A DNA stretch of 61,518 nucleotides, filler included, from Sphacelaria rigidula (taxonomy: Eukaryota), in assembly GCA_964200075.2 (NCBI GenBank). It is 11 parts of 11 records of this genome, joined end to end, with 100 filler letters (N's around TTAATTAATTAA, not from the genome) between each part and the next. Parts side by side here need not be neighbours in the genome. Positions count along the whole stretch, not along the records: positions 50,417 to 55,917 come from CAXNAA020026810.1; 10 more parts are not named here. One strand, 5' to 3'. This document shows positions 5,228-61,518 of this stretch, piece by piece. Each line of letters starts with the position of its first letter. The first letter of the stretch is position 1. Both the position numbers and the translations under genes were made by a program. Below the pieces are notes generated by a model. The model was not told the origin of the DNA. It was given only the letters and a program-made list of their open reading frames with translations, and did no database searches.

Positions 5228-5502
5228 AGTGCGTCGGCGGCAGACGGTGGAGACTCGTCTTGGCGACCGCCTGCAGGAGGCGCTGGAGTAGGTGTTGGGT
5301 CGGCGCCGTTGGCAGGCGGTGTAGATTTATTCGGGCCAGCGCTGGCGGGACGCGACCGAGGTGTGGTTGGGCAGGCGCCGGTGATAATTAGCTAAGACTC
5401 GTTCGGTCGAGCGTCAGCGGGGGGCGGTCGAAAAGGGATTGTTGTGCGGGCGCCGCTTGCAGATGGCGGCGACTTATTCAGACGAGCGCCGACGGGAGGT
5501 GG
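5228..5502 (-). repeat. Degenerate ~72-bp tandem repeat (about 4 copies) encoding Pro-rich 24-aa units on the minus strand
   Basis: Minus-strand units PPVGARLNKSPPSASGA / PPADARPNES*LIITGA / RPASAGPNKSTPPANGA / PPAGGRQDESPPSAADA. One unit has an in-frame stop, and the array runs off the contig end. Confidence 0.6.
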
Positions 5503-5602
5503 NNNNNNNNNNNNNNNNNNNNNNNNNNNNNNNNNNNNNNNNNNNNTTAATTAATTAANNNNNNNNNNNNNNNNNNNNNNNNNNNNNNNNNNNNNNNNNN
5601 NN
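5503..5602. other. Artificial contig linker (44N-TTAATTAATTAA-44N), first of ten
   Basis: Identical linkers at 5503-5602, 11105-11204, 16707-16806, 22309-22408, 27911-28010, 33513-33612, 39115-39214, 44716-44815, 50317-50416 and 55918-56017. The core has stops in all six frames. The intervening contigs are 5502 bp (x7) then 5501 bp (x4), i.e. length-sorted. Confidence 0.98.
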
Positions 5603-5689
5603 GATCTTGAAAGCCATGAAAAGCCTACTCTCAATCGTATCGTAGACTCTCAATCTCACGAAAATACCGTTAGTGGCGAATGATCGTGC

Positions 5690-7335: not shown

Positions 7336-9289
7336 GCGACCTATACATCAACGAAGCAGAGAAAAGCATTGATATTGTACGAAGGAGAGACCAGAAGATC
7401 GTTTCGTGCTGCACTACAGAAGCAAGCGGCAGTTTTTTTTTTTTTTTTTTAGGAATGAGCAGTAGTTCAGTACTGCTTTTTTTTTCTTATTTGTACCGTT
7501 TTTNNNNNNNNNNACAAACCAGGGAAGAAACAAAAAGACCAAACCTCGGACGAAGGCGAGCCCCGAAAATCGTTTCAAGCAGAAAAAAAGAAGCAAGCGG
7601 CAGTTTTTTTTTTTTTTTTCAGGAATGAGCAGTAGTTCAGTACTGCTTTTTTCTCATCATTGGAACAGCTGTTCATTATTCATCATTTATTTTTTCTACT
7701 CTCTTCGAGTTTTTTCCACTCGTGTTTCCCCGTTGATCATGAGCTCACTTATATATCTTGTTATCGTTTCTATTTTCATGTCTTCACTTTTTAACGTTTT
7801 ATTTTGATTTTTGTGAGGCATGGTATTTGATTTTCGTGAGGCATGGTATTTTCTCGATTTTTTGCCTCGTATTTTTTCGGGTCAGAATTTGCCCCTCAAG
7901 CCCTCACTTTTTCCTCCGTTCGGTTTTCTGGTCTGGTTTTCATGTGTTTTTTTTTCCTTTTCCGTTTTTGTTTTTCTTGCTTTCGTCGGACCTGACCCCC
8001 CTTCTCGTGTCAGTCCTTTTTCAGTGGTTTTCGTGTTTCATGATTTCCCCCCCGTATTATGGACCTGGGATGTTATTTCTACTTTTGTTTCATGTTTCAT
8101 TTTCCTTCTTCCTCTCTTTTTTTGTTTTCCGCGGGTCTGGTTTGTTCCTTTCGCGCAATTTTTGGCTTCTCTTTTCCCCTTCACGTTATCTTGCTCCGTA
8201 TTTTTCGCTTTTTTTCCGGTCTTGCATTCCACGGGGATTGTTTATCGTGTCTTTTCCTCTTGATTTGGTCAGACCTGATCCTACCCTTTGTTTCACGTAC
8301 TCAGTCCGTTCATCACGTTCCTCCGTCCTCGGTGAACGTTGATCCGACTGTAGGGCCCCCACCCTTCTCATGTAAAAATATTGTTAGGTTAGCGCGCCGG
8401 GTGCCTGCTGGGTCACTGTATCGTGAATTAACTGTTGATCTACGATGTAGTCCCCTACTGGCCAGTAGGTTAATGGGTACTGGTCGATAGCAGAAAAGCG
8501 TGCAGCACTTCCATCAGCCAGTTAACGCTTTCTTGGGGTTATTTTTAGTGGGTCAGCTCTTTGCGAGTCGCACACTACCCAGGATTGGTGTTATCAATCA
8601 GGGTTGTCTAAGCGCCGTTAGTATCTGAAACTAGTCACAGTGTCATGAGGAAGGAAGATAGAGAGGCGTTATTTGTTCCTCCAGACAGTTTTGGGGCAGG
8701 TTGGCTCACAGATCACTCGATCCAGCCATGGGAATGCTTCCGAAGTTCTGGGAAAACTGGATGTACAGGCTGTACTCTAGGGAAGATTAGTGTGCAGGCT
8801 GAAATGCCCTGACCCCGAGGAGGCAAACGCCTTCTCGGGCCGAATTTAGATAGGTTGCGTCGCATGTACCCATGCATCCTTGCTCACTCTTGAGCCATCT
8901 TTCGAGCTGGACCATCTGCTCCTACTGTTTACCACTGGTGCGAACAGTGTGCTGGACCATCGCGGGGATAATCAGTGAGAGTTAAAAAGATATCAAGCCT
9001 TTGAGCTCCTTTTGTTGTTGCTACTGTGACCCATGATCACGGAAACCTGCACGTGTGCATTTGCGGCTTGCTTTACTCGGACACCTGGTGCGTTGTGTAC
9101 CTACTCAAGCCTGCAGCGCACTGATCATAGTTAGGAAGGCATTGAACCTTGGGTCACGTTCCATCTATATCACACTGGCGTACGACGAATTGGCCGTGTT
9201 TTGCTTGGGTTTTTTTCAGTAGCCCGCGCGTTTTCTCATAGCCTTGTCGCGTTGTCAAGTGGTCCCCTACTGTAGTCCTCTGCTACTCC

Positions 9290-11040
9290 TCACTTTTGGT
9301 TCATCTGTATTTTGACCCCCAGTTAGTTGCAGTTCCAACAGTCCTTATTTTTCATTTAGCTTTAGAGTGCTTTTTTTTCTCAGTCAGTGTGCCTCCATGC
9401 ATTTGTTTCCGCTACATTTCCGCTGCAGCAGCAACGATTGCAACCTGCCCTTTGCCCTTCCCTTCGTGGATCGCTCCTGTTGTTAGGCGACACCCTTGTT
9501 TGGTAGTGCCGTTGTGCTGTTGCCATCGTCCTTTTCAACCCGCTCCACGTTCGGCCTACTGGCGTACTGTACAACCTTCACGAACAGTTCAACATATCCC
9601 TTACTGAACCGATACCGAACACGCCGCTTCTCTCTGGTGACATCGACTATACCTTTCCTCCCTGAGACCGTCGCCACTTGTGTGTCCCTGTTGTGCTTAT
9701 AGTGCGGTATCCTTTTACTTTTGACACTGACTACTTGAGTGTATTCATACTTTTCTGCACGACTATTTGCGTTGCCAGCTTTACAGCGCAACTGTTTAGG
9801 TCCTCGCGCTTGCCGCCCCAGTTGTGTAGAGTACTGTCGCCCAAATTAATTGTTCTTCCGCGTGATCATCTGCACCAACCTGCTCACTACCTTCGGTGCT
9901 ATCATCTTTGGCCGCACCTCCCCTTAGGTTTTATACCCCACACCGCCCTGCTACGACATTTTTCGTTGGGTGAGCACTACGTGGTCACCTTTTCACCTTT
10001 GAGTGGTGCATTCCCCAGTGCGCTTTTCATCTTTTTGTGCGAGCACTGGTACATACACATATATTATCTTTTCGCGCGGGTACTACACGCACGTTTTCTT
10101 CTCTTCTCCTTTTAGCCTTAGCCAGCGGGCTCCAGTGTTTCCCCTCTGGTGCTGCACCCCCTGGATCCCTTTACATTTCCCTGAATTCTTGTTAGAAAGT
10201 TTTCGCATTTTCTGTAAGCTTTTCCGCTTGGCACCTGACCTGCACCAACAACCCGTGTTTCAGCCCACTGCTACAGCGGTCCTCCCCTGCACTTCAGTTC
10301 TCTGTTTCACGCTTTCGTAGCCGCACTTTTAATCCTCTCTCTGTTTGGACTTTCACGGAGACTTACAGGTCGCCACCCTTTTCAGCAACATATTCTACGG
10401 TAGTATTGGTGCCCTCTTCCGTGGTCTCGAGTAGTGTTTTTCTGCACCTCCTGTGTGCGGTATTTTTTTACTTACCCCACTGCAGTACCCTTCTCCAGCG
10501 TGTGCCTGATCACTACGTATACCTGTCATCCTTGCCGTGCGCAACGCGCTCATCGGACACTTTGTCCAAGTGTCTTCCTTTTCACAGTCGCCTCATTGCT
10601 AGGTTTCACCCTCGCACCCAACCCCTCGTGCGACCACTATTAGGTTTCTCTCGGTATATCTGTGAGCTTGTTCCCTTGCGACTATTTACGCCTTCGTACA
10701 CTCTCCGCGCCCCCCCTCTACTTCCCCATATACCGTTTTCTCTGGAGGTCTTACTTCCGCCGCAGATTCTCCCTTTTTGCGCTTAATCAGCTCTATTTCT
10801 TTCTGCGCTGTTGTTTGCCTTTCAAGACTTGAATTGCCGCAATTACACTGTTTTTTATTATCACAACAGTCTACTCTAGTTTGGTATAACTCCGCTATAA
10901 AATCCTGCAGTCCTTACTGCTTAATTTTTCCTGTTTTTCGGTACTCACCATCTCCTGCCGGGTTTACACTACCTTTGATTATTATTATCCCACAACCTTC
11001 ATACTCTGGTATCTAACGTTTGTTTCTACTTCTTCACCCT
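9290..11040 (-). mobile_element. Possible highly decayed retroelement coding remnant
   Basis: Long purine-rich minus strand with broken coding-like frames (e.g. RKGIVDVTREKRRVR, RHYQTRV..SGNVAETNAW). No intact diagnostic motif was found. Confidence 0.25.
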
Positions 11041-12556
11041 AATATGAAACAACAACAGAAAATAACTTTTCCCTCGGTATTGCCTACTTACGAATCTTTA
11101 CGCCNNNNNNNNNNNNNNNNNNNNNNNNNNNNNNNNNNNNNNNNNNNNTTAATTAATTAANNNNNNNNNNNNNNNNNNNNNNNNNNNNNNNNNNNNNNNN
11201 NNNNAAAATACAGTACTAAACACTGTTGAACCGTCGAAAGATACATGAGGTGCGTATGATTTTTGTATGCGGGAATCTTGGCGTAAGAGTTTGTTTTTTT
11301 TGGGCGTAAGACTGTGCACCTTGTGTGCTGTAGGGATTTTTTTATTTGGGGATGGGGGGATGTAGCGCAAAAATATCAAGACGACAGATATTTATGCGAG
11401 AGGTTTTGCCCAATCCCGTGTTGTAGCACCACAACCGAGCGAGTACAGGGGCACGATGTTTTCCGATTCCGCCGTGCATGTTAAGAAACGTTGGCAAGGC
11501 AAATAGATCGCACGGGGGGGAGGGGGACACGCACACACACAACGCTGTCTTTCGGTGCAGCCTTGAAAGACACAGCCAATTTGAAAAGCTTCACCCCAGC
11601 GAGTAAAAAAATCGTAAAATGGTACGACGGCACGCGACATTACGAATCTCTCGGCTCGGCTCGCTTCAAAAAGGTGAAAGGTGAAAGGTTGACAGCAAAT
11701 GGAAGGAAACCAGATGTACAGGGAGAAAAAGCCTTCCACACAACACGCAACGGAGACTCTCGCTCTCGCGATCCGGCCGCGTCAGACATTACCACAAAGG
11801 GAGAAGATTTCGAGAGCAAAGACGATCGCAAAGTATAAGGGACGAAATGGCCATGTTACAAACGGTTTCTGCGTGCGCATTTTCAAGGTTGGGAAATAGA
11901 CACAAAAGAGAGAAAGGACAACACGATGACACAAGGATCTGTTTCGATGAGTCAAGTCCAACACGGCCACAACACGTACAGCAACAGCAACAAACTTCGC
12001 AGACAGGAAATAGAGGGAGAAAACTTTCGTGCGTTCTCTCTTTCTGCGCCCTTCAACAGCGAACTGGATCGCGAAACGAACGAACACACACCACGTTGCC
12101 AATCTCCGTAAGGGCAGCTGGTCAAGGCATGCATCACACACCATTCAGGCGATCGAAAAAAAACAACGGAATACAAGCAAAAAAAAAAAGAGAGAAAAGG
12201 AAATCAAACTAAATAACGGAGCAAACTGAGAGAGTGACTTCCTTCCAACGCCACACACTTCTCCGACGTTTGCCAACGAACAAGATCACAACGAGAGGTG
12301 ACGGGCTCTAGCATGGCGCGCCCGACATTTTTTTTTTAATATATATCCCAGAGTGTACAAGGGCTTCAACGTATCGACGTCCATGATGACGCACATGTCT
12401 CCCCAGGGAATACTTCCGCCTGTTCACCTTGGATGCACCCACCTCCTCACCTCGGCCGGGTTCGTGTCATATTAGGGTTCACGCGAAGAGGCCAAATCGT
12501 CAATAAACCAAGCAACCAGCCAAACCGACCATGCTGGAGGTCCTACTCGTACTTAC

Positions 12557-12830
12557 CGGCGAGATTTCGTCCCTTTGCCAGGTCCATCGCCTGCCGTGCC
12601 GCATCCGCAATCGCCACTTTTGCGGCGGGGTTCGACACGCCGATGGTTATTCGCCGGTTGGGGTTGTTCGTCTCCACGAGGCGAGACGCGCATCGCACGA
12701 ATGACGCGCGCGTTACACTCTGTCTTCGTTCGTGCACCGACTCTTCCGTCTCGTCCAGGGGCTTGCCGTAGGCCACGCGCGCCATTTTCCCGTTGGGTAG
12801 CTGATGCCGGTGCAACGTTTCTTGGATTTG
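12557..12830 (-). CDS. CDPK-like gene exon (C-terminal extension)
   Basis: Phase-0 acceptor AATACAG and an open frame QIQETLHRHQLPNGKMARVAYGKPLDETEESV...AMDLAKGRNLA. It ends at donor GTAAGT, or reads through GKYE to the stop at 12543. Confidence 0.6.
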
Positions 12831-13444
12831 CTGTATTCATGAAGATTGCAGGAGGGCGGGATGATGGGGGAAAAAAGTAAACGTGGGACCGTGGGCCAAG
12901 GTTGGGGAACAGGCAGAAGACAGACGGTATGCTTTGACGTCCCTGCTGTGTCCTTGCGCACATATTTCTCGGAAAAAAATAACAATAAATGTTCCGAAAT
13001 TAACACTTGATGTGGATATATCTGCGTACGACGGCGCAACCAAGGGCAGGCAATTCTCACGAGCAAAATCACCCTGGGAAATCGTATAGCGGTACGCGGC
13101 GAGACTAGGATCGCGTACCTTCCTCCCGCCACGCGCGCTTGCGCCTTTTTTCGCGAAACGTGTACACCTACCAATCGCCGTGCGCCATGCCTAGTTTCGC
13201 ATTGGTCCAATAGTTGGAGTATGAGCGACGACTGTTGTCTGTGCTACGCCAAAATACGCGATTCTCTCTTGAGGAAACGGACCAACTAGTCAACGGAGGG
13301 GGTGGGGGAGAAAAAAAAAATCCCCACTACCCTACAGGTTGCGAGCTTAGTACAGTATCAGAGCACCGTCACACAGGCCTTGATCCTTAACGGTAGTCTT
13401 ACGCTCGAGGTGAGAGATGCCAAGTTCATAATTGCAGCGCTTAC

Positions 13445-24568: not shown

Positions 24569-27500
24569 ATGGCGGACAATGAGAGTATTCTTGCGGTACT
24601 TAAGTTGCGTACAAAAGTTGATGGTAGAGACAAGGCTAATTTCCGAGAGTACCAAGACAAACTACGGGTGATCCTCTCCCTCCACCGCAATGCGGCCGCA
24701 GAAATGCTGCAGGGGCGGCAGAGACCCGCACGCACGGTAATTGCTGATGAGCCGTCAACCCGTGATACGGCAGCCTCACTGGCTTGGAATCGCGCAAACA
24801 ATGACCTGTTCAGCGTTTTACTTTTTACCCCCGAAAAATCAGCGAACAATACCGTGAGACGTTTCATGGGGAAAACCCAGGAGGACGGGGTTGCTAATGG
24901 CCAAGCAGCGTGGGCAGCGTTGCAAGAAAAAATGACGGCAACACAAAAGAGGCACGCAGGGAACTCCATGATAAACTCCACAAGACGGCGATGCAGTCAG
25001 GGGATGACCCGGAAGATGTTTTGTTTGTCATGGATGGCTACCGTGACCGCCTGGAGGAAATGGGGCAGTCCGTGCCTGGCGAACGATATGAGAACATTAC
25101 CCTTCGAGCCTTACCTGCCGAGTACGATAGGGTTCGCATTGCTACCTGTGAGGGGCGCGATTTTAATTTGTCGGACCTCAGATACATGGTCAGCACCATG
25201 TATGTTGACTACCTTTCACGACCGGACGCCACTAACTCGGTCGCAGGCCGCGGGGTTGCTATGCAGGCTAGTGGACAGAATGACGGCAGCGAAAGCAATC
25301 AAGTAACATGCTACCACTGCGGAAAGCAAGGACACGTGAGGAGAAATTGCCCCGCCCGAAGTGCGACCCGAGCACTGACAGGGGGAGACGGTCAGGACGG
25401 AGGAGACAATGGGAATGTAGGCAAGTGGTGCTCTTTCCACAGGTCAACAACCCACAGCGAAGAAGAGTGCCGTTCCTTGCAACAGCGCAACCAGCAGACA
25501 GCCAGTTTCGCACAACGGTCAGTGTATCCACCAGCCACCGGTACAAGAGAGCACCCTCCCGCCATCTCCTTTCATGCCCTAGAAGCGCCCAAAGCGAACC
25601 ATCCCCAAGCGGACAACCTTTGGCCTTTCGCTTCAACGAACCAACCCGTTGCTTCTTTTGACAGCAGCTGCCTCTTCGGCGCCTTCGAAGGGGCCGACGG
25701 AGAGGAGGCCGGGGGTCCTGGGTTCTGGCGCAGAGCTCGCAACCTACTGCGGGGAATCAGGGAGACACTTTCCCCACTAGTGCGCGCGCTGGCCGTAATA
25801 GCCGTAGTCCACTACGTCTCGTTGATGTTCGGGAACTCATTATACCCCGGGGCCACGTCGAATCTCGACGAAACCGCTGAAACGTGTGCCGAAATCACCG
25901 ATGCTGATGATGGGACGGCTCTCGCGGCAGGACCCGCTCTGGACAAGTGGACTGAGGGTAGCAATAGCCATGTCAGTGTCATGGTAGACAGTGGTCCGTC
26001 GGGGCATTACTTCGACGATACCGTCATCCCGGGGCTACGGTATAAACTCGACAACTACCAAGAACTGGCGACCCCGCGTACGATCACCACCGCAGGACTG
26101 CTCCGCGGACACATCGAAGACGGCGAAGGGGTCCAACGCCTGGTTCAGATTTCGTGTTTGGTCGTGCTTGGCCTGGGGAGGAACTTGTTCTCCGTCAAAC
26201 ACGCGACACGGAATGGAGTTGTATCTATTTTTGAGATGAACAACCCAAGACTCGAGACAAACAACTTCACCGTTCCGCTGCAGGAACTGGAGAGCGACCT
26301 GTATTTCTTCTCTCTGGAACTAAGCAGCGGCAACGACGTATCTGGACTGGCTATGCAAGCTGCAGACGCCGCCACGCTGGGCATCGGAGGATGGGACACT
26401 TGAACAGCAAAAGTTTGAATCTTCTCAAAAACGTCGGAAGCAACGGGGTGGATTCCGGTGGAGCCGTTCCGGACTGTGATATTTGTGCTGTTGGGAAAAG
26501 TCATCAACTGCCCCACCCGAAGACAGCCAACAACAAAGTGCAACGCGCTTTTCAACTAGTCATGACAGATTTGATGGGATCGATCATGCCGGAGGCGCTG
26601 GGAGGCTTCAAGTACGTCTGCAAGATCTCCGATGAGAATACCAGATGGACAGAGATTTACCTCGAAAAAACCAACAACGGCACTCTTCATACATTTCAGT
26701 CCTACATACAGTCAATGATCATTCTTGGCGGTGTTCGGGTCGAACGACTAAGGTCAGACAAAGGCGGTGAGTTCATTGGCAACGAGTTCACGTCGTACTG
26801 CCGACAGACAGGCAAATTGCTAGAGTTTGCAAGCACCAATACACCACAACAAATCGGCCGGTGCATGCGCTTGCAGCCATGGTCCGGTGCATGTGCTTGA
26901 CATGCAGTCGCCTCATAAGATGCTGAAGAGGACAGAACCGGATCTCAACCACATTCGAGTCGTCGGAGCCAGGGTTTTCGTACATATCGAGCAGGATACT
27001 TCGAAACTTGCGACACTTTCTACGATACCCCCCCCCAGAACCAGCCCAAACGTGTCACGAAAAAAATGGCCCTACAGCGCCTGATGTTTTGGTTCAGGCT
27101 GCATGACGCGCCTCGTATTGGCAACATTGGCGAGAACGAACCCAAGTGTGGGAATTCCCAGCTGCTTGTTGTGCTCGGATTTTCCCATTTCGATTCACAT
27201 GAAGATTTTGCCTCCCAAAACCATGCACGTTTGGGGGGGGGGCTGTCGTAGAAAGTGCCTTGCTCTCAAAGCAGTTGAAGGACGACTAGTAGGGTACAGT
27301 GATGACAGTAAGAGCTACAAAGCCTACAACCCGGCCAAGCAAGGTATCATTGAGAGCAGGAGCGTGGTCTTCATCGAGACTCCGACACACCTTACCCCGA
27401 CGGGAGAGCCACAACTTCGGATACACCCATTTTCACTTGGTGACCAGGACTCCAGCAACAGAGAGGGCCACAATTACGTCACCGACGACGACGACTTCTT

Positions 27501-27910
27501 CCATGATCTTCGCCATCACACCTCCGTACTAGCTCAACCGGCTCACGCCTCCGTGGATCATATCACTGCCAGCGGGATCTGTAACGATCCACAGGTGGCC
27601 GAGCCTCTGGAGAGAATCAGCGCCATCACCAAGCGGGACTGCACAACGATGACACACCTTGTGAAGAGACGTCGACACCAGCATCACCGGAGAGCCGTGC
27701 GCCGCTGGGACACACTGCACCCCCTTTTCGGGACGAACTTAGCCAATCCACATCATCAGCCGAATCACCACTGCTCACCCGCTCTCGACACTCTCGCCAT
27801 CAAGTAACTCCCGCCGTGACGCGCGCAGGCATTGCAGCACGCTCCTTCAGGGAACGCAACACCAACAACGACGGCGCAGCTTGTGCGCACCTTTCAGCCA
27901 CTGTGGACGA
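24569..27910 (+). mobile_element. Ty1/copia gag-protease-integrase, frameshifted and truncated by the contig end
   Basis: Gag (DGRDKANFREYQDKL), zinc knuckle CYHCGKQGHVRRNC, WCSFHRSTTHSEEEC, protease MVDSGPSGHY, WHRRMGHLN..CDICAVGK, TDLMG, RLRSDKGGEF, NTPQQIG, KAVEGRLVGYS. Frameshifts near 24930 and 26375. The catalytic-Glu region is deleted, and RT is not reached. Confidence 0.93.
27012..27259. mobile_element. 248-bp MITE inserted in the copia integrase, 4-bp TSD (TTGC)
   Basis: GACACTTTCTACGA...TCGTAGAAAGTGCC TIRs, with TTGC at 27008-27011 and 27260-27263. Removing the element and one TSD restores TSKLALKAVEG. Confidence 0.88.
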
Positions 27911-41672: not shown

Positions 41673-41924
41673 GTGAGGGAGGGTGCGGTGGCGCAATATT
41701 TCGACGGCTACTTGTTTCGGGAAGGCAGGCGCACTATCTAAAGATGATCTTAGGCACCGCATTGGGGAGTGATTATTGCAAAGCCCAACTTACAGCGCGT
41801 TATATTTGTTGCAGCAGCGTTCTCTCTGATATTCAACAGCGGTTCGAATTTCGTCGAACTGCTTTGACTCGGGTATCGATCCCTCCCTTCATTTCTGTCG
41901 GTCGTTCTCAAAAAACAAAAACAG

Positions 41925-43031
41925 TTTTCTTCAGTGGTGAACGTGGTGTATCCCGATGTGTACGAGAGATTCCTGTCCACGCTGAACCTGGTGAACCTCG
42001 ATCTCGGCTTCATCCTATCCGTGTCATGTATAGTCGACACCAACTTTTACGTCCGGCTCGGTTTCGTCACAATCAGCCCGCTGGTTGTGTGTGGAGTTCT
42101 AGCAGGGACGAACACCGTGTCTAGGTCAAGGAATCGGCACTCTCCCGCGGCGATGCAAGTTGCCGAACACAAGCATATATCGATCGCGCTCCTTGTTACG
42201 TTTTTTATATACTCCTCGGTGTCGTTCACCATATTCCAAACGTTCGTTTGCGAGCCGCTGGATGATGGGGTAAAATACTTGCGGGCGGACTACAGCCTCA
42301 CCTGCTCAACAGGCCTCCACACGGCGATGCAGGTGTACGCCGGTCTGATGATCTTCGTATACCCAGTAGGCATCCCGGCCTTTTTCGCTTGGTGGTTCAT
42401 TTCTCACCGACACGACCTCGTGAAGGTTGGCGCTACTGGCACCTCCTCAGAAGCATCCACGACGCTGGACCTCTTGAAGCCCATGCGGGATCTCTGGGTT
42501 ACCTATAAACCCCGCCGGTACTATTATGAGGTGGTGGAGTGTTGTCGGCGGATAGCGTTGACAGGGCTGGCCGTATTTTTGATGCCCGGCAGCGCGGCGC
42601 AGGTAGCGATTGAGGTGGTGCTCGCTGGTGTGTTTATCGCGTTGTCCGAAAGGCTTTTGCCTTTTGCGGACCCCTTGGATGCGTGGCTGTACCGTTGCGG
42701 TATATGGGTTGTTTTTTTCTCCATGTACCTGTGTCTGTTGTTGAAAGTCGATGCTTCGGACGAGGACAGTCGAAGCCAAGTGGTGTTTGCGAAGGTCCTA
42801 ATCGCGGCGCATGTTTGCATGATTGTGATGGTAGTGGTCCAGGCCGTGCTCTCGATGAGGAGGAGCCTCGTTTCCGTGCGGGACCAGCCGGTTGCTAATC
42901 AAACTTCCCGAGGGTCGCGTTTCACACAGGTGCGCGATGTGGATGCTACGGTTGATGCTGAAGACAGATACAAGTCACAGTGGTCGTCAGGAGCTGATGA
43001 AACCGCTAGGAGAGTCACAATACCAGGATGA
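41925..43031 (+). CDS. Cys-rich multi-pass membrane protein, terminal exon (multiple TM helices)
   Basis: Phase-0 acceptor AAACAG. Open frame FSSVVNVVYPDVYERFL...FQTFVCE..YLRADYSLTC...YPVGIP...YKPRRYYYEVVECCRRIALTG to a TGA. Resembles a large stramenopile family with an N-terminal beta-helix/Cys-rich region. Confidence 0.9.
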   Translation, partial: FSSVVNVVYPDVYERFLSTLNLVNLDLGFILSVSCIVDTNFYVRLGFVTISPLVVCGVLAGTNTVSRSRNRHSPAAMQVAEHKHISIALLVTFFIYSSVSFTIFQTFVCEPLDDGVKYLRADYSLTCSTGLHTAMQVYAGLMIFVYPVGIPAFFAWWFISHRHDLVKVGATGTSSEASTTLDLLKPMRDLWVTYKPRRYYYEVVECCRRIALTGLAVFLMPGSAAQVAIEVVLAGVFIALSERLLPFADPLDAWLYRCGIWVVFFSMYLCLLLKVDASDEDSRSQVVFAKVLIAAHVCMIVMVVVQAVLSMRRSLVSVRDQPVANQTSRGSRFTQVRDVDATVDAEDRYKSQWSSGADETARRVTIPG

Positions 43032-50263: not shown

Positions 50264-50865
50264 TCCCGGAACGGCAAAAAAAAGAAGAAAATTGAAATTA
50301 AAAAAACGGATTAAAANNNNNNNNNNNNNNNNNNNNNNNNNNNNNNNNNNNNNNNNNNNNTTAATTAATTAANNNNNNNNNNNNNNNNNNNNNNNNNNNN
50401 NNNNNNNNNNNNNNNNCTTTGGCATGCATGATCATGAGTACACCCCCCCCCCGACCCGAACCCTCCAGAAACAAAATGCTGAAAAAATATGCCGACAAAA
50501 GAATTACCCGAGAAATCTGTGGCCGCTCTTATGAACGACCTAATGCCTGATGACCTGGTGAAGAAGTTTGCCTCCACATCTCCCCAAGAAAAAAGCGTCT
50601 CCCCCCTGCTCCCCCGCCAAACAAGTCGGAGATTTCGGGGGGGAAAAAGACCCGCTCACAAGACCCCTGATACACATCATTTTATTCATTTCGAGTGGCG
50701 TACAGCACACATGGGATACGCTCATCCACCTCTCCCCCTTCAGTGCTTGTCCACCGCGACGTCGACGCCTCTTCGTTTTTGTTTTCATTCTCGCCGTTGT
50801 TGCTGTCGTTGCTGCTGCTTTCTCCACGCCACTCGCGGCGTCGCGTTTTATTTGAAAAATCACAG

Positions 50866-50946
50866 GGGTTTCACGGCGATAACTGTGCTACCGTTGCTGT
50901 GGGGGAGATAGATGCTGACGGTCAACGATTAATCGACGCCACCAAG
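50866..50946 (+). CDS. Methionine aminopeptidase type 1 exon
   Basis: 81-bp phase 0-0 exon between CACAG and GTGGG: GFHGDNCATVAVGEIDADGQRLIDATK. Matches the metal-binding G(Y/F)HGD..T..VG......L motif of MetAP1. Confidence 0.8.
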
Positions 50947-51989
50947 GTGGGCTTGTTTTCTCAAGGCCTTTCAGACGACATTAATTCAGTGAAAATCAGA
51001 ACATGATCCATTTTCGTTACAGCAGGGTTGGCACAGGGAGGATATGGAGATCTCAAGCTTTCTATTTCTGTTGTATGCACGTTTATCTAGTAGAGCTCGG
51101 AAATGGTTTGTCCAACCATTTTACCCTTCCGGGACCGGAGTGGACTACCCGGGGGCGAGGACCTTTCGTGAATCAGCATTATTTTCATTTGGAATTGAAT
51201 GAAAAGGATGCCGAGTCGCAAATCGCCCCTGCGTGCAAACCAGGGGTTCATCCCGCGCTTGTTAGAGTCCGGTCCCATAACGATTAACTGGTTAATGGTT
51301 GCGCGATAGTTACGCGTAGCGCAAACATCAACCAGTTGAATGGTGCGTAATGTTTTGCTCATCAAGCGGCACAGTCGCGAGGGAAATCTCCCCCCTCCCC
51401 CTCCCCCCCGGCAGAGGGGGTCCCACGGGAGCGCGCGCCCGGAGGGCCCCGCTGGAGGCACGTGTTGACGCTATTTGGCTTCACGAGCTAAAAAAAACGT
51501 GAAATTGCGCCAGTTTTCATGGGCAAAATCATGGCGCACTTGGCCTGGAATTTTGATTGAAAGAAACCGTAGCCTTTTTTGAATTTACATCGGAAAAATG
51601 GGATTTAAGTAAGGGGCCAGGGCTGCTGCTGTACGTCGTGTGCTGTCTGTTGCAGCTGCGTGCTGTATGTAGCATACGTAGCCGGCCGGTGACGGTAAAA
51701 TATTGTCCGAAACCATTATCCAATTTTTTTCATAAATTGTGACCATTACTACCCCTACGATGATGGCCAGTTACAACTGGTACCATATTTCTGAGCTCTA
51801 ATGTATGTATGTATATATATATGTATATATACGTAGCTGACGGTGAGTTAGCTCGTTGCTCTGGACCCCATGTTCGGTTTTATCTGGAGCGAGCAGATAC
51901 CTAGTGGAACGGCTCCTCCAAGGCATGTTTGCTTCCTTCCCCAGGAGACAGGTAACAACCTTTACCGTGCACTTTGCTTAAGCTGGTTC

Positions 51990-52390
51990 CGTACAGTTCC
52001 TTCGAATGCGCTCCACCTCGCCGCCGCTTCGAACTCGAATCTCATGCTGACTTGCCATCAAGACGCTCCAGTGCACGCGCAGGCACCAAGGTAGGGGTGC
52101 CCCCCCACCCAGGTAGTCTCGAACTCGGATGACGATTCATCCTCACCGAGCAAATCTACTGGCAACGTCCCCCAGCTCGACTCTGCATACGAGTCACCCA
52201 ACACACCCGGGCGTTGGGCTTCAGTAATATGTGCCGTTGGCGTACCTGAAGAATGCGCGATGGTTCGATTCCCTCATGAAACGTTTTATCAAGTTCCCTC
52301 GCAGCGCCATTTTGTCGGACAAGCCATGAGCTCCCCGAAATGACGCATCGAAGAGGATCCCCAGATCAATTGTCCAAGAACACAAAATAC
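51990..52390 (-). mobile_element. Possible hAT transposase relic
   Basis: Broken frames CSWTIDLGILFD...RGNLIKRFMRES...LLKPNARVCW loosely follow the CxxH-L-L / K.F..S / P..TRW order. Confidence 0.25.
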
Positions 52391-52960
52391 CTGACAGCGG
52401 GGTCTGAGAAGCCAAAGCGCTATATTTTTGGTACTCCGCGTTCTCCGCGTCCAGCGTTGCAGGGAGAAAATTTGGGAAAAAACGGGGCCGAATGAGCTAG
52501 CTAGTGATACGAATCAGTACGAGAAGGAGAAGTAGTATTCAGGTAGTTCGTGAGCTTTCTGACGTGTAAACGGTTGACTTGATACTCCTGCTGAACTCCT
52601 AGTTGGGTGGGAGCCGATCAGGTCGGAAGTGATTGAGATGGGGTTCGCAATCTTCATCGAACACCGTGCCTACCGGACTAACTCTTGAGCCACTGTTCTA
52701 GAACGGCCTTCTGGAAACCTTCCAGAGAGCGCTCGGGAACTATCCGCTCATTGATTGACTGAATGATTGATTGAATAATTGAATGATTGAATGATTGAAT
52801 GACTGATCGATTATTTCACATTAGCTGATTGCAACAATCCAGCCCGTGGTCGGGGGCAGCAACAAGAAGCAAAATAAGGAAGAAGGGAAGAAACAGAAGA
52901 CGACGGAAGCAACGGCCACAGATGAGGAAGAAAAAAAAAAGTGGCGACAACAAAAATATG

Positions 52961-52997
<37 letters not shown>

Positions 52998-53264
52998 CAA
53001 GATGATAATCTCGCATTACGTAGCTGATTGCAACAATCCAGCTCGTGATAAAAAGCAGAAACAAGTTGGAGAAAAATGACTGAAACTAGAAATATAACAA
53101 AACGTGGCGAAAGGAATTCGAAAGACAAAGGCAACAGAGCTAAGCTCGCCTCCGGGGGGGAGCACAGACAAAACAAGGAAACAGAGAAGGAACCACCAGG
53201 AACAAAAGGTGAGCAATCAGGGGTGAACCAAATACAGTGCCAGATGCTATGACGAGTTGGTGAA

Positions 53265-53625
53265 TATGCCGCAGCCACTTTTCTGGGACCTCATACTGGA
53301 AATTTCAGAGAACACTCGGAAACTACCCGTACAAAATCTCATGGATACCTTTGTGGAACCTCCCGCTGGAAGCCTTCAAGACCACACTCGAGAAGTACCC
53401 GCGCAATATCACTCAGCTACTGTTTTTGAATCACCTTGTGGAAAATTTCCAGAGAACGCCCGGAAACTATCTGCACAATATCCCGCAGCTACTGTTACGG
53501 AACCTCCGCCCAAGAAACCACTCGGAAACTATCTGCACGATTTTCCGCAGCTACTGTCCTCGAATCTCCTTCTGGGAAACTTGCAGGGATTACTCGGAAA
53601 CTGCCCACACAACATCCCGCGGCTA
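53265..53625 (+). repeat. ~72-bp minisatellite, about 5 copies, plus an outlier at about 52690-52745
   Basis: C(T/C)CGGAAACTA-type cores at 53316, 53387, 53459, 53521 and 53594. Confidence 0.8.
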
Positions 53626-54332
53626 CATGTAGATCTACTGACGTCGGTGCAAGAGCTTTGGAGCAACACAGTTGCTCTCGGTACGTCCTGTCGCGTTCTT
53701 CTCTGTGGTTGGTATCGCAGTGTACGAACTTGGTCAGCGATTATATTCCGCAGATAGTTCAACGTGTACAGCCAGCACGTTCCTTGGATACCTCAGGGCA
53801 CCGACAGCAACAATCTCCTGGCGACTCTATTCCTAGTCGACAGCCGTGGGGGCTATGCTTGGACGTACGAAGTTTGACGTTGCAAAACATGACGCGGAAT
53901 CCCGCGGAATCATGCTGGGATGTTCGGTACACGTGCCGGTATGGTGTGGTATTCTGAGAAAGAATTCCCCACTTCAGGTATGCCCTACTAAGCATAACCT
54001 TCAGAATTCAAGTGTGAACGTTTCATGTCGGTGGAGGGGGGTCCGGGACTCAGAGCCCATGGTAGCTTGTACGAGATGAAGAGAATTTTGATGTATCCAG
54101 CAGGAATTCCATTGCGGAAACGCTGTTGATTTCCCGTCTTCATCACGAACGTTTCAGACTACGGCATCTACGTTGTGCATATCATGTATTGGACATGAAC
54201 CTCATACGTAAATTCTCGGGCACACGTAGTCCACCAGCCTGGTGAACGCCCACACCATTCAGGACGAGGTACTAACGGGAACGGTCCGGGAACCAGTACC
54301 GTAGCTAGTGTTCGGTCGAGCCACAACTGCTC

Positions 54333-54576
54333 CGCGGCTCAATATTGTAAGCTCTGTACTTGAGGCTTAGAGCTGGGATTCAGAGGAAGGAGGTTCAGAT
54401 AGAGCTGTACGCAACGCGGCTCAATATTGTAAGCTCTGTAGTTGAGGCTTAGAGCTGGGATTCAGAGGGAGAAGGTTCAGATAGAGCTGTACGCAACGCG
54501 GCTCAATATTGTAAGCTCTGTAGTTGAGGCTTAGAGCTGGGATTCAGAGGGAAAAGGTTCAGATAGAGCTGTACGC
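54333..54576 (+). repeat. Near-perfect 82-bp tandem repeat x3
   Basis: CTCAATATTGTAAGCTCTGTA at 54338, 54420 and 54502. Confidence 0.93.
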
Positions 54577-54603
54577 GAGCGGGTGACATCTGAATTAATA
54601 ATG

Positions 54604-54953
54604 AAGAGCACGACGATGCAGCGCCCCACTCGGTTCGTCTGCTCAACCCATCAAAATCTCTGGTGACACTTGCCTTGCTCCGCTCTAGAATGGTGCACTG
54701 CGAAGAAGCGCGCCACGGCTTCATCAAACACCCCACACGTGTACATCGCTCGTCCAGACTTGCAACTTGCGTGGGGCCACCTCCGTGCTCCTCGAGGCTC
54801 ACGAACCTGTGCATTTGTGAGGTGTTTGGTGTGGCCGTCGCGCGCTTCCTCGCAGTGCACCGTTTTACAACGGAGCAGGCGAACCGTCTCGAGACATCTT
54901 GATGGGTTGAGCACATGACGTACCAAAGTGAGGGGCTGCATCGCCGCGCTTTT
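54604..54953. repeat. Long inverted repeat / foldback (arms about 150 bp, loop about 48 nt)
   Basis: 54604-54752 is the imperfect reverse complement of 54801-54953 (e.g. TGCTCAACCCATCAA / TTGATGGGTTGAGCA). Confidence 0.9.
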
Positions 54954-55409
54954 GCAGACTCCTACGCTGTCCGATCGCCCATGTGTTCTCGCCGCTGAGC
55001 TTGTTGGAGAAGGGAAAGCTCTTCCCGACTGCCAAGCTGTCCGAGCGCCGATGCAATCTCGCCGCTGAGCTTGTTGGAGAACGGGTGAAGCTCTTCCAGA
55101 CTTTCGAGCTGTCCGAGCGACGATGGGATCTCGCCGGTGAGCTGATTTACGCCAATGTAAAAATGTTGCAGGCTCCTAAGCTGTGTGAGCGACGATATGA
55201 TCTCGCCGCTGAGCTTGTTGGAGAAGAGGTGGAGTTTCGCAGACTCCCAAGCTGTCTGAACGGCGATGGGATCTCGCCGGTGAGCTGAATTACGCCAAGA
55301 TGAAGCTCTCGGAAGCTCCCAAGCTGTCTGAGGGACGATGGGATCTCGCCGCTCAGGTTGTTGGAGCCGAAGTTGGCAAGTTGCAGACTCCCAAGCCGAG
55401 CGGCGAGAT
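54954..55409 (-). pseudogene. Intronless plant-type 24-aa LRR array (about 6 units), frameshifted
   Basis: 72-bp periodic units: NNLSGEIPSSLRQLGSFRELHLGVIQLTGEIPSPFRQLGS / NKLSGEIISSLTQLRSLQHFYIGVNQLTGEIPSSLGQLESLEELH. Confidence 0.88.
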
Positions 55410-55413
55410 GGGG

Positions 55414-55562
55414 ATCTCGTCGCTCGGCTCGGGAGTTTGCAACTTGCCAGCTTCGTCTCCAATGAGCTCGGCGGCGAGACCCCATCGTCGCTCACACAGC
55501 TTGGGAGCCTGCAAGAGCTTCACCTCGGCGTAAACCAGCTCAGCAGCGAGGTCCCATCATTG
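55414..55562 (+). pseudogene. Inverted duplicate of two LRR units
   Basis: LGSLQLASFVSNELGGETPSSLTQLGSLQELHLGVNQLSSEVPS; reverse complement of 55261-55409. Confidence 0.88.
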
Positions 55563-57573
55563 TGATTGACAATAGGATACCCATTTCGCCCACCAATGTC
55601 TATTCAGGGTCACAATATAATCTGAATCGCGACCACCAGTGTCTATCGCTCGTCACAATGCAATTTGAATCGCGGCCATCAATATCTATTGCTGACCACG
55701 AAGGTAGCTGAATGGATCACAGGCGCTTTGTATGCACATTTTTCGATGTATGTTTCCGCCTTCTTCCACAGAGGCTATGGCCAGCTATCGCCTCAGGTCG
55801 TTGCGTGTTCATATGTAAGGGATATTGCCGTTGATATCATGACACCACTGCGGAGAGCAATCTATTTTCCAAAACCGATCGTTGCCGTCACTGGGTGTCG
55901 ATAGGTGCTCCCGAGAGNNNNNNNNNNNNNNNNNNNNNNNNNNNNNNNNNNNNNNNNNNNNTTAATTAATTAANNNNNNNNNNNNNNNNNNNNNNNNNNN
56001 NNNNNNNNNNNNNNNNNGGTACACGGGGCTAATCGGGTACAATCTATCTACCTTCAACCAGCTGCGTCAACAATCCAATCCTGCCTTACCACAACACACA
56101 TTCGACTAGAATCTTTCGATACCTGTCAGTCGTTTTTGGGGATCCGCAAGTCCCAAACTACTTTTGATTCAGACACAGTCATTTAGCATCACATTAGCCC
56201 ACCCTGGATCGTTCAAGTGCAGTCACGTTTCAGAAGGGACGAAGTTGAATCGAGACACACCTCTCCCACACCACAGAAAATTGAGACTCCATTTGAAGAT
56301 CGAGTCCTCTTTGGTACGGAGAACGGGAAGGGGCGATCAACACTAAAAAATAAGAAATAAAAACACAAGCACGAAGCAAAGAGAAAAAAAATCGAACCGG
56401 TACAGTGACTCGGTGTCCTCATGTTCCGTGAGTTCTTCAGACCGGGTCATGGGAAATAAAAAAAACTAAAAAAACTAAAAACTAAAAACTAAAAACTAAA
56501 AAATAACACCCATAATCAACAACCAAACATGTACCATAAAATGCAGTGTCTCCAGAATATCGTAAGCATTTTCGTGATAGGTACAGGAAATCAGAGACCA
56601 ATCATTGAAACGATTATCCTACCCTGCCATAACTATATCATGAATAAATAGTTCGCTCTTTTCCGAATGTCCGATTTGTTTTGGGTCACTGGTAGAAAAA
56701 CAAGCAAGCCCACCGAGGCACTACATCACTTCGACAACCAAGTTCATGCTAATCACTCGCCCCAGTCAATCAGCAAAAGCAAACAACGTACAGCCGAGTT
56801 CGTCGCGGAAATGGTAGTTTCCCGCGAAAACCAGACGTCGATAAAAAAAAACCAAATGAATGATACGGACAAATCAACCCGTTTGACGTGAGTTAATTGT
56901 CGGTACATGTTTGTGAGAACAACGACTTGCTTGGGACGTCTGGGTGATGATCCAGTCGTACAGAACGTTTTTTTCTCACACGACGATACAAAAACAACTG
57001 ACCGGTTTGTGAGGTCAGGTGTCCGTACACGTCAAGAGAAACGTGGTAGACAATACACAACCTTCGGGCCTACTACGTAGTTCCGAGGCGGATCACCTAA
57101 CACATTTTTGAACCACGACAAATACACAGGACAGAGAGGACCAACGCAGCCCACTCCTCACAGTATTTGCCCGTTCGGACTAAAACGAGACTGGCCCGAA
57201 CACAAACTGGAGCAAAACCCACAGCCTCTCGTACCGTCACGTTACTTCGTCCAATAATCCCTGATAAAAACAAAACACCACCGACCAATTTCAGGGGCGG
57301 GTAATCGTACGCAAAAAATGGTAAAAGTGACGGAAAAAACAGCGAGTGGCGGACTCTGAGCCTGTAGGCTGTACCAACGGTCGAGTATCGACATGGCGGA
57401 ACGGACAGTTCCGAAAGAGCGATCTACCTCATCATGATACCTGATGGTCCTGTATGAGGAGACGTTTGCAACCGATCTTACCGCGAATTCAATAACAATT
57501 CTAAAACACCGTTATGTACGATGCGGCCAGTGGTGGCCTCGTTGTAACTTATCAACCACCAAAGTATAAATCA

Positions 57574-58002
57574 TCGAGTAACAGAGGATTCTATAAAATG
57601 AGGTCTATCAATGGAATGAGGTTCGAGCCCAAAACAGTACTTTCTCCACACTTTCAGCGATCGTGCCCGATGACTTTTTTGTCGGCCTAATGCCCCTCGA
57701 TCGCGCATATACTTTTTCAGCGCATTTTACCCAATTTGTGAGCTTACAGCGCTGACCGAAACTGCTGTTTTCCCTGATATCACCCCCTCCTAAAAAAATA
57801 GTAGAAATGGCGGTTTCGGACAGCGCTGTAAGCTCACAGAGTCGACAAAATACACTGAAAAAGTATCTAAGCGATCGAGGGGCATTAGGCCGGCAAGAAA
57901 GTTATTGGGCACCATCGCTGAAAGCGTGGAGAAAGTACTGTTTTGAGCTCAAACCTCATTTCATCGATGAACCTCATTTTATAGAACCCTCTGTTGAGTC
58001 GA
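57574..58002. mobile_element. 429-bp foldback MITE, probable 4-bp TSD ATCA
   Basis: ~190-bp arms (AACAGAGG.TTCTATAAAATGAGG ... CCTCATTTTATAGAA.CCTCTGTT), with ATCA at 57570-57573 and 58003-58006. Confidence 0.88.
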
Positions 58003-58760: not shown

Positions 58761-61518
58761 TCATGAGTCATCTGCCTCCCAAGCGGTGTCCGTGTTCCGT
58801 AGAACGGCTGTTTCGAGTTCGCCTTGGTCGTGTCGTTGGAGGCACCAGGATCCCCTCCGAGCGGTCGGCTCCTCGGTGTAGTATGCATCATCCAAGCGAA
58901 TCTTAAGGGGGCTCGGGTCATCAAGGAAACGGATAAAGTAGGAGTGGTCAGATGCAGGATCGACCAAATGATTTTTTCCCAACCACCACAGTGAATCCAA
59001 GGCCTTATACCAAAAATACGCCCCTTTCGGCAATCGTTTTCCGTGAAAGCACTGCATGTATTGTGAACGCGAAAGAAGGCTATATCCTGTCACAACAAAC
59101 CGCGCTGAGTGTTCACGTGCCAGTTCTCGAGCGGCAGCTCCCTTGCGCATCGACTGGCATCTCTTATTCAACGGGTGGTGTTGGACGTTATTTCCTACCC
59201 AGTACAGCAATATTTCCCGACGAAAATGACGCAAATCAACCTCACGCTCCCATGCAACACGCGTGATACCCTTCCAATGTGTTTGATTCATTACCGCTAT
59301 CTTACTTCCACGACCACGAACCAGTTGATGGCCCGAAATCCTATCTACCTCAACGCGTTCTAGGGGTGCGTCCGCATCCTCGACCGTCATATGATACGGC
59401 GGAGTTTTGATCGCATATTTGGTCAACACATACTGGCTAAGTCCTATCGGCAGGTGTTTGAGCATGTCAGAGGAGTCATGAGGGGGGATGCACGGTTTGT
59501 ATCGTAGCGTCGAGACGCGATTTTTCGGTTTCAAACCAGGTTCATCCGTGGGAAAATCTAAAATACAAAAGTTTCGCTCCCACCGGATTCTTGTCGGGTG
59601 CCGTAGCGCTTGGACTAACGGCTAAAAATTTCCCAAGGATCAGTCCAATTCAAGGATAGCTTCGCCTTCAACACTTTATCCGAAGATCATTTCGAGCTAG
59701 CCCCTTGATTGATGGTCTTCACATCGTTATACACCCATGCCCATTGGCCTACCTTCCACACCGGGCGGTTGTGCACTACATCATCCAACATCGAGTTCGC
59801 CCTGGCCACCTTGGCCAAATTGATTTGGTTCTGTTCTCGTACCACTTCATATGCGAGACGAAGACGATTGCTAACCGAAAAATGATACTCTGCAACATTA
59901 CGATCCAGACTCTGATGTCCACCTGTATTTTTGCGTTCGAACACCGTTAAAGGTAACCGAGGCATGCGTCCAATATGAATTTCATTCGGCGACAACCCCG
60001 TAGCGGCATTGACTGAATTGTTGTAGTTCATCTGAGCAAGAGGCAGGTGCAGATCCCAGTCCATCTGTCTCTCATTCGCTAAAGCAGCAAGCATCTGTGC
60101 CATCGTATGGTTCACTCGTTCCGTTCCACCATTGGTGGAAGGATGATATGAACTAGTAAAAATGTGATGGGCACCCAAAAGATCACTAGCGGTGGCAGAA
60201 AGTTTGCCTGAAAAATGCGGGCCGTTATCAGATAATAAGCGTTTGGGCACACTCCACCGTGGGATGTACATGTAGACAAGAATATTGGCGGTACCTTCCG
60301 CGGTATAACTACTGGGGGGGACGGCGTGCATCACCGCATGTCGACTAAATCAACCCGTAAACAACAAAATATACTTGTTTCCACTATCCGTCAGGGGCAA
60401 AGGACCAAAATAGTCCCACGACATTACTTCACTAGGCCCGTTTGGGAGTGGCATGGAAACAATTGGCCAACGAACTGTTTGACGAGAAGTTTTTCGCGCC
60501 TGACACAAAAGACAACGCCTCACCCACCAACGACAACACTGACCCATACAAATCCACCAATAAAAACGTTCCAACATCTGGGAGGTCCTAATGGCGCCTG
60601 AATGAGTCGATGCCTGTGAATGGCATTCGTGTAGAACCCATGGGCGCAGTAGCATCGGGACGTAGATGCGGACGGGTTCATCACCTAGCAAGCGGGCATA
60701 TCGACTTGTAGGCTTCCCCCTGGGGAGGGCTGCTGTGGGCCGGCGAACTAACAGAGTTTTACCATCATCATCCGTATGCAGCATACCTTTCCTTGAAAGT
60801 TCAGTAACTTCATCCTGTGTGGGCGCTTCGAGACTCCCGACTGGCAAAAGGAATTTAGTTTCTGAGAATGGACATGGACAACGTTTAGATAGATAATGGA
60901 TAGCTGATTTACAAGCAGGTTCTACCTGTTGTTCCCGGGCCCAACCGGCGTGGGAGAAAATAGTCAAACGTTCCTTGAAGACACCTACTGTTGAAGCGTC
61001 TACTTCGTGTTGGGTCGGTTCGGGGCGGGGTTGACACGAAGCGGTGATTTCGGAATCAAGGGTGAGCCTACCAGTTGGTGTACTCTCAGACGGAACGTTA
61101 ACGTCTACTCCTGCGTCGATTAGCGTGGAGAGTGTTGTGGTGGTATTTGCAATATCATCACCACTGGAGGGAGGCACAGCCGTGGTTTCGGCTATGGTTG
61201 GCAGGGGCGGCACGGTCGGGGTCGATTGTTTTGGGGACCTTGCGTCGCGGAGGCTGCGGGGGCGCAAGGAAACTATCGGGGACCGGGGTGGGGGCAGGGA
61301 GGAGAAGGTCAGGACCGGATACGGCTAATTTGGTGGCCGTTTCGGCGGTTCGACGTCCACGAGTCCTATTCGAAATCAAATCTCGAACTTAAACTGGTAA
61401 GACGGAGTCAGCAAAGGACGGTTCTACACCTGCTGCGAAAACCATGCGCTGGCCAGTTGCACGAAAATAATCATAGCCAACAGTATTCGTAGACAGTCCA
61501 TTCCAAACTGAGTACAAC
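58761..61518 (-). mobile_element. Ty3/gypsy pol 3' part: integrase with chromo-like and Tudor-like C-terminal domains, frameshifted
   Basis: HECHSQASTHSG..FYWWICM..VRRCLLCQARK, WDYFGPLP..GNKYILLF, LLSDNGPHF, SSYHPSTNGGTERVN, WDLHLP, KLSLNWT, EVDRISGHQLVRGRG..HWKG..WEREVDL, GAYFWYK..WWLGK..YFIRFLDDP. Confidence 0.93.

Follow-up and report, generated by a model that had tools for sequence, protein, structure and literature searches.

An LRR-derived fold-back hairpin in the Sphacelaria rigidula genome: a probably neutrally decaying inverted duplication and possible siRNA substrate

The DNA analyzed here, referred to as the window, is a stretch of 61,518 nucleotides (positions 1–61518) from Sphacelaria rigidula, composed of 11 pieces of approximately 5.5 kb that are separated by 10 linkers (each N44-TTAATTAATTAA-N44), any feature spanning a linker being artificial. 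The locus of interest is located in the piece covering positions 50417–55917 (5,501 bases; CAXNAA020026810.1), in which a hairpin composed of leucine-rich repeat (LRR) coding sequence lies 355 nt from the contig end. The following features were distinguished on this contig:

50866–50946, plus strand: MetAP1-like exon, bounded by an AG acceptor and a GT donor, the sole recognisable host-gene exon on the contig
54604–54953, no strand: high-copy fold-back element of 350 nt, adjoining the far end of the LRR array and recognised from the inverted pairs I3 and I9
54948–55260, minus strand: rest of the intronless LRR array, approximately 4.4 more units with two frameshifts, recognised from repeat family D1, translation, and an LRR_1 match
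55261–55409, minus strand: left arm of the hairpin, two LRR units, antisense to LRR in a plus-strand transcript
55410–55413, no strand: loop and axis of symmetry, GGGG, 4 nt, within the Pro codon of a GEIP motif
55414–55562, plus strand: right arm of the hairpin, approximately 1.9 LRR units, terminated by a stop codon next to the border of a high-copy repeat
55569–55917, no strand: high-copy repeat, beginning 7 nt past the right arm and reaching the contig end

In a preceding sequence-only reading of this DNA, it was proposed that the LRR array reverses its direction at 55410–55413 (GAGAT-GGGG-ATCTC), and that two indel-free arms of approximately 149 nt enclose a 4-nt loop. Both proposals were confirmed. 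The inverted-repeat finder returned arms at 55265–55409 and 55414–55558 (145 nt, 84% complementary, 4 nt apart), the GGGG loop at 55410–55413 was found to be flanked by GAGAT and ATCTC, and the alignment of the 149-nt arms yielded 26 mismatches out of 149 positions and no indel. Since 18 of these mismatches are transitions, the earlier hand count of about 26 differences, roughly two-thirds of them transitions, proved to be accurate, and the same applies to the reported absence of a strand bias for G·U, as nine G·U-compatible mismatches were counted on the plus strand and nine on the minus strand. A BLASTN comparison of the hairpin with the window gave 13 matches, all inside 54948–55562, and an exact scan of metagenomes for its 24-nt junction yielded 0 matches.

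Folded alone, the 302 nt between 55261 and 55562 were predicted to form one hairpin of −246.1 kcal/mol, compared to −118.0 ± 5.2 kcal/mol for shuffled sequences (z = −24.6; 0 out of 100 shuffles as stable), with a longest perfect helix of 13 bp in the stem. In a 701-nt context, the minimum-energy fold retained just the inner ~42 bp of this stem, and the outer right arm paired with the upstream array period 55122–55227, indicating two nearly equivalent pairings, one of them being the single 300-nt hairpin. The proposed folding of the region into one hairpin therefore holds for the isolated segment, and in the longer context for the inner ~42 bp only. For comparison, the foldbacks of Ectocarpus miRNA loci have a mean length of 170 nt (PMC4513859). 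The hairpin could not be assigned to a curated miRNA family, the best Rfam match, MIR6457, reaching 48.4 bits against a gathering threshold of 140, and the others also being sub-threshold (MIR6297 with 32.9 vs. 114 and mir-967 with 27.2 vs. 70). These matches are considered to be generic, because any long hairpin attracts them.

On the minus strand, the sequence at the axis reads GAC GAG ATC CCC (D E I P), and a short natural quasi-palindrome, GGCGAGAT-CCC-ATCGTCGC, surrounds the Pro codon of the GEIP motif in every LRR unit. Long hairpins as such are not rare in the 61.5 kb of the window, in which three independent inverted repeats with arms of more than 100 nt were detected. On the next contig, a long inverted repeat with 191-nt arms (86% complementarity, 34 nt between them) was found at 57580–57995, adjoined by ORFs with an integrase zinc-binding domain (60350–61324, minus strand, E = 9.9e-12).

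Public-read contigs of several runs were aligned to the whole piece 50417–55917 at a likeness of at least 90%. In run X1, which may be the sample behind the window's own assembly, one contig of 763 nt (depth 19.8) spans 54842–55604, including the loop, with 0 differences and 0 gaps. The neighboring single-copy contigs of this run have depths between 23 and 31, placing the hairpin contig at about single-copy depth. Run X3 originates from a different study, and its contigs (eight pieces listed) featured 16 differences over approximately 4,117 nt; this rate of 3.9 per kb indicates that X3 represents another individual or strain. One X3 contig covers 54842–55387 with 0 differences, and a second one carries a C>T change at 55430, located 71 letters from the contig end. 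Provided that this value is the distance to the nearer end, the second contig should cover at least 55359–55501 and would bridge the loop. The X3 contigs of the junction region showed depths of 13.1 to 26.4.

These results bear on whether the palindrome is an assembly or library artefact, namely, a chimera that arose near a contig end. The position of the hairpin would be compatible with such an origin, as its 5.5-kb contig ends 355 nt further on, inside a high-copy repeat. However, fold-back artefacts have identical arms, whereas 26 out of 149 sites differ here, and independent contigs from two studies hold the junction at single-copy depth (19.8 in X1 and 13.1–26.4 in X3). Taken together, the 26 differing sites and the recovery of the junction in the reads of two studies exclude a chimera for practical purposes, and an artefact is regarded as extremely improbable, being close to refuted already. 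The palindrome read from the assembly thus represents genuine DNA, as evidenced by the X1 contig across the loop and by the X3 contigs carrying both arms with one SNP, and the fold-back locus is single-copy genomic DNA.

Regarding the origin of the arms, a 67-nt core was found six times on the minus strand from position 54948, at spacings of 70, 72, 72, 71, and 72 nt. Because the units abut directly at a spacing of 70–72 nt, there is no room for introns, and the array is consequently intronless; separate 72-nt exons, as known for type I LRR exons, are absent from it. The Pfam family LRR_1 matched the array with E = 1.4e-6 (27.7 bits, above the cut-off of 20.6 bits) and the right arm with E = 0.018 (15.4 bits, under the 20.6-bit cut-off). 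The left arm translates as RLGSLQLANFGSNNLSGEIPSSLRQLGSFRELHLGVIQLTGEIPSPFRQLGSLRN (55398–55234, minus strand) and the right arm, on the plus strand, as RLGSLQLASFVSNELGGETPSSLTQLGSLQELHLGVNQLSSEVPSL, followed by a stop codon, while the array was resolved into three in-frame stretches with two frameshifts between them (...LGSLQLANFGSNNLSGEIPSSLRQLGSFRELHLGVIQLTGEIPSPFRQLGSLRN / KLHLFSNKLSGEIISSLTQLRSLQHFYIGVNQLTGEIPSSLGQLESLEELHPFSNKLSGEIASALGQLGSREELSLL / FPFSNKLSGEN...). The two frameshifts, the missing start codon, and the repeats at both ends identify the array as a pseudogene fragment. Accordingly, the earlier description of a decayed, intronless array of 72-bp LRR units on the minus strand is upheld by the six copies, the LRR_1 match, and the two frameshifts, and the assignment of both arms to LRR coding sequence by their translation, with LRR_1 scoring over the cut-off for the array and under it for the right arm. 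The array may also have originated as a processed (retro-copied) copy.

The arms encode plant-type LRR units of 24 residues. When compared to the consensus published for Ectocarpus type I LRR exons, GxxPxxLxxxxxLxxLxLxxNxLx (PMC3341825), the right-arm unit GETPSSLTQLGSLQELHLGVNQLS fitted 8 out of 8 fixed positions, the other complete units missing between one and three. One LRR protein search resulted in 1,098 hits among 1,527 candidates, the best 120 of which showed 32–57% identity and, where a source was named (many rows being unnamed), originated from plants, bacteria, or one fungus. A separate near search gave no hit among its four candidates. In the representative protein library, 30,582 hits were obtained, the best 150 representing giant multi-repeat proteins with 34–46% identity. 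Judged by these similarities, all three protein searches were uninformative and appear to point to generic plant-type LRR proteins only, with at most 57% identity among the matches listed.

The LRR segment is enclosed by repeats on both sides. The element at 54604–54953 contains arms at 54635–54745 and 54808–54918 (78%) as well as outer arms at 54604–54630 and 54927–54953, and its DNA fold reached −109.8 kcal/mol (z = −14.3). Its summed word depth amounted to 6,130–13,244 in X1, compared to approximately 20–30 for single-copy contigs, and was thousands-fold in both DNA-like runs. We take this element to resemble a MITE. On the opposite side, the summed depth in X1 increased from 141 (bin 55385–55568) to 27,465 and 41,312 beyond, with a range of 27,000–52,000 for the repeat at 55569–55917, and loose contig ends occur at 55569 in X3. 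By eye, this repeat features internal sub-repeats of approximately 46 nt. The right arm was probably cut short by it, and as this arm stops 7 nt before the repeat and the contig ends inside the repeat, the palindrome may at one time have exceeded 149 nt per arm, or may still do so. Further repeats of the same contig are the extremely high-copy contig start, which includes a poly-C tract (50417–50600; depth 449,647 in X1), and an 82-nt unit present three times in tandem at 54333–54578 (94–100% alike; summed depth of the family 3,800–7,700 in X1).

The only recognisable exon of a putative host gene is the one at 50866–50946. All 14 PDB matches obtained for it were methionine aminopeptidases, aligned at the GxHGD region; the E-values were just 0.22–1.2, because the query comprises 27 residues. 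Pfam gave no hit for the ORF holding this exon, nor did it reveal more MetAP exons among 60 plus-strand ORFs of the contig, a scan that also missed the known exon and is weak for short exons, and six MetAP motif expressions produced two hits on the contig, both spurious. The sequence-only reading had described a MetAP1 exon whose continuation could not be located in this contig, and this stands in view of the splice signals, the PDB matches, and the lack of a further exon in these scans. The hairpin is situated 4.3 kb downstream of this exon, which ends with a GT donor, and probably resides in a long intron.

Two further runs, X4 and X6, are only guessed to represent RNA. In these, the bin of the MetAP1-like exon reached depths of 138.5 (X4) and 133.5 (X6), the other non-repeat bins mostly ranging between approximately 2.5 and 60, while in the DNA-like runs the same bin showed values of 50.5 and 45, close to those of the neighboring bins. 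This pattern is consistent with RNA that has a low background along the 4.3 kb downstream of the exon. Contigs of X4 and X6 cover the array up to 55353 and 55138, respectively, with strand and level not being readable, and X4 carries a 1-nt deletion at 55092 within the array. Neither run has a listed contig over the loop or the right arm (bin depths of 0.93 and 0.86), the lack of cover being no evidence in itself. As contigs cannot distinguish pre-mRNA from carried-over DNA, a transcribed intronic location is considered plausible. In X4, a piece of approximately 40 nt at about 55314–55353 (coordinates deduced from the bin mean), which is at least 90% like the SGEIPSSL-coding part of the left arm, showed a word depth of approximately 3,139 (total depth of 3,138.9 at 55350, bin mean of 685), compared to 0.49 in the same bin of X6. 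It may represent a strongly and sample-specifically expressed LRR paralogue.

Relatives of the arms were also indicated by the DNA-like data. In X1, the summed depth over the two arms was 340 and 141, and in X3 it was 276 and 133, compared to approximately 20–26 for single-copy sequence, and contigs with other letters were recorded at 55354 (nine in X1 and six in X3) and at 55357 (seven and six, both in X1). The excess depth and the variant contigs imply that other sites of the genome contain sequences with a likeness of at least 90% to parts of the arms, which makes targets of a hairpin-derived RNA possible.

To place the inverted copy in relation to the tandem copies, 106-nt segments were compared, resulting in 87/106 identical positions between the left and the right arm, 88/106 between the right arm and the period 55122–55227, and 87/106 between the left arm and the same period. 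This three-way equidistance suggests that the inverted copy is about as old as the last tandem duplication, or that the array was inverted and not duplicated, or that the copies were homogenised. Over the inner 39 nt, the arms are identical at 35 positions, and a 12-nt stretch at the unit junction, as read from the unit sequences, is common to both arms and absent from every other unit; near the axis, the fold-back is a true duplicate. The translations, the LRR_1 matches, the identity of the inner part, and the 12-nt stretch all show that the arms are homologous to one protein-coding family, inverted and adjacent. The smaller number of differences in the inner part (4/39 vs. 22/110 in the outer part) was not significant (Fisher p = 0.22).

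Overall, the arms have diverged by approximately 17% (K2P 0.20), roughly 50-fold the divergence of X3 from the window. The arm differences were distributed over codon positions 1, 2, and 3 as 7, 8, and 10, and 21 out of 46 codons differed, 13 of them nonsynonymously and 8 synonymously. Within the hairpin, X3 carries one SNP, compared to approximately 1.2 expected from the flank rate of 3.9 per kb. This SNP (55430 C>T) allows an A-U pair with 55393 in place of an A·C mismatch, which, for a single site, may fit either stem maintenance or an ancestral state. Considering the codon positions, the G·U symmetry, the SNP density, and the equidistance, the arms look neutral, with no sign of coding or stem constraint. 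This pattern argues to some degree against a maintained function; an siRNA source that is young and not under selection would look alike, so small-RNA output is compatible with it.

On balance, the locus is probably a fold-back duplication that decays neutrally within an LRR pseudogene fragment, and as regards small RNAs it is a possible siRNA substrate only. According to the mechanism proposed, one stretch of the array would have been copied or turned in inverted orientation, presumably by replication template switching or fold-back repair at the GEIP quasi-palindrome; both arms would then have drifted neutrally alongside the adjoining tandem copies, and the high-copy repeat would later have shortened the right arm. 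On this view, the locus would be a by-product of the recombination that is known to shuffle LRR units in brown algae. If transcribed together with the MetAP1-like host gene, it could give rise to imperfect double-stranded RNA, and incidental siRNAs would be possible.

Quasi-palindrome template-switch rearrangements and fold-back inverted duplications constitute a known class of mechanisms. The locus resembles such cases in that its axis falls on a short natural quasi-palindrome with a short spacer (4 nt). It differs from them in that the end product alone is seen, and a simple inversion in a tandem array would give a similar junction. A resemblance also exists to the long hairpin (hpRNA) and pseudogene-derived endo-siRNA loci of animals, in which inverted-repeat pseudogene fragments yield long imperfect dsRNA that can act on the parent family; the inverted-repeat pseudogene fragment is shared, whereas lineage and machinery are different.

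In plants, miRNAs targeting NBS-LRR genes arise repeatedly by inverted duplication of the target sequence, MIR472, MIR825, and MIR1885 being NBS-LRR-derived examples (PMC5026261), in accordance with the inverted-duplication model of Allen et al. 2004 (as cited in PMC5026261, PMC4513859, and PMC5381526). Similar to these miRNAs, the Sphacelaria locus consists of coding sequence of a receptor-type family that is folded back, with arm homology extending far beyond 21 nt and with mismatches accumulated in an originally perfect stem. In contrast to them, it belongs to a brown alga, a group for which surveys report no gene-derived miRNA locus (PMC4513859; PMC5381526); moreover, its arms are LRR repeats and not the NB P-loop region, and its 145-nt stem has an alternative pairing register. 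By its structure, the locus appears to have the anatomy of the first step of the inverted-duplication route.

Within brown algae, the closest precedent comes from Ectocarpus, for which Zambounis et al. described type I LRR exons that lie, noncoding and in reverse orientation, within introns of ROCO and further LRR loci, along with intense LRR shuffling and LRR exons once predicted as miRNA targets (PMC3341825). Common to both are the brown-algal host, the 24-residue consensus, the presence of both orientations in noncoding DNA, and decay by frameshifts. In Ectocarpus, however, the LRRs are separate 72-nt exons with splice sites in the LRR domain of their own gene, whereas the units studied here abut without introns, are accompanied by a MetAP-like exon, and build a fold-back in perfect register around a 4-nt loop. 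The small RNAs of Ectocarpus are mostly 21 nt long with a 5' U, and its AGO protein may repress translation (PMC12867755). In a study on the ROCO genes of four brown algae (PMC11378527), miRNA, small RNA, reverse, antisense, noncoding strand, and Sphacelaria are not mentioned.

Against this background, the proposal of the sequence-only reading was that of a hairpin-siRNA or proto-miRNA locus that could silence LRR genes in trans. In the form weighed here, the region would be transcribed, probably in the MetAP1-like pre-mRNA, and its stem would be diced to 21-nt RNAs dampening LRR genes; those from the left arm would be antisense to the conserved SGEIPSSL-coding core of LRR mRNAs. Several of the results described above would suit this proposal, namely, the stable fold (−246.1 kcal/mol, z = −24.6), the antisense orientation of the left arm to LRR coding sequence in a plus-strand transcript, the paralogous sequences that are at least 90% alike (summed depths of 340 and 141 vs. 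~20 for single copy in X1), the increased depth of the MetAP exon in the runs guessed to be RNA together with their cover of the array to 55353 and 55138, and the SNP at 55430 restoring a stem pair. In addition, 75% of the Ectocarpus miRNA loci lie in genes (PMC4513859), and extended hairpins host many of the Ectocarpus candidates (PMC5381526). On the other hand, G·U pairs show no strand bias (nine vs. nine), neither coding nor stem constraint is visible at a SNP density like that of the flanks, the outer stem has an equally good alternative partner in the longer context, and the Rfam matches are sub-threshold only. Furthermore, stringent surveys that compared pre-miRNAs with protein-coding genes reported no brown-algal miRNA of such an origin, neither in Ectocarpus nor in Saccharina (PMC4513859; PMC5381526). 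A small-RNA locus is considered rather unlikely, and its strongest form, a gene-derived hairpin small-RNA locus that would be the first in brown algae, in which an intronic LRR fold-back in a housekeeping gene holds down many candidate immune-receptor genes by 21-nt RNAs antisense to the SGEIPSSL core, is quite unlikely.

Alternatively, the array and its inverted copy could serve as a reservoir of LRR units, acting as donors for exon shuffling or gene conversion that diversify LRR receptors, as proposed for the Ectocarpus ROCO loci. Ectocarpus is known to have noncoding LRR units in reverse orientation as well as intergenic recombination between its type I LRR loci (PMC3341825), the array units fit the same type I consensus, and the three-way equidistance of the copies is compatible with a rearrangement burst or with homogenisation. 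Nevertheless, units that abut without introns or splice sites are unusable as ready-made exons, the copies carry frameshifts, and the noncoding LRRs of Ectocarpus are reported to be confined to introns inside LRR domains (PMC3341825), while the nearest exon here is MetAP-like. A donor role is accordingly judged to be very unlikely, and neutral decay of a fold-back duplication remains the preferred reading.

At present, the locus represents a clean, verified example of LRR arrays rearranging at a built-in quasi-palindrome, and it cannot yet be called a functional element. As a marker locus, it is of use for Sphacelaria rigidula small-RNA data, none of which were apparent from the titles returned by a literature search. 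Should 21-nt RNAs truly be produced, the locus would be a convergent counterpart of the NBS-LRR-derived miRNAs of plants, and it would offer a source for the small RNAs that were formerly predicted to target LRRs in Ectocarpus. If such RNAs were functional, the inverted-duplication route to silencing loci would also work in brown algae, an independently multicellular lineage, and RNA silencing would be linked to the fast-evolving repertoire of LRR receptors.

Two other pieces of the window contain coding sequence of a different kind. Retrotransposon-like ORFs were observed at 24898–27807, encoding a zinc knuckle, a GAG-pre-integrase domain, a retroviral polymerase SH3-like domain, and, under the Pfam cut-off, an integrase core. 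An open frame of 387 residues at 41868–43031 was assigned to no Pfam family; it obtained 280 hits, many of them brown-algal, including one labelled 'probable extracellular nuclease (ISS)' in Ectocarpus.
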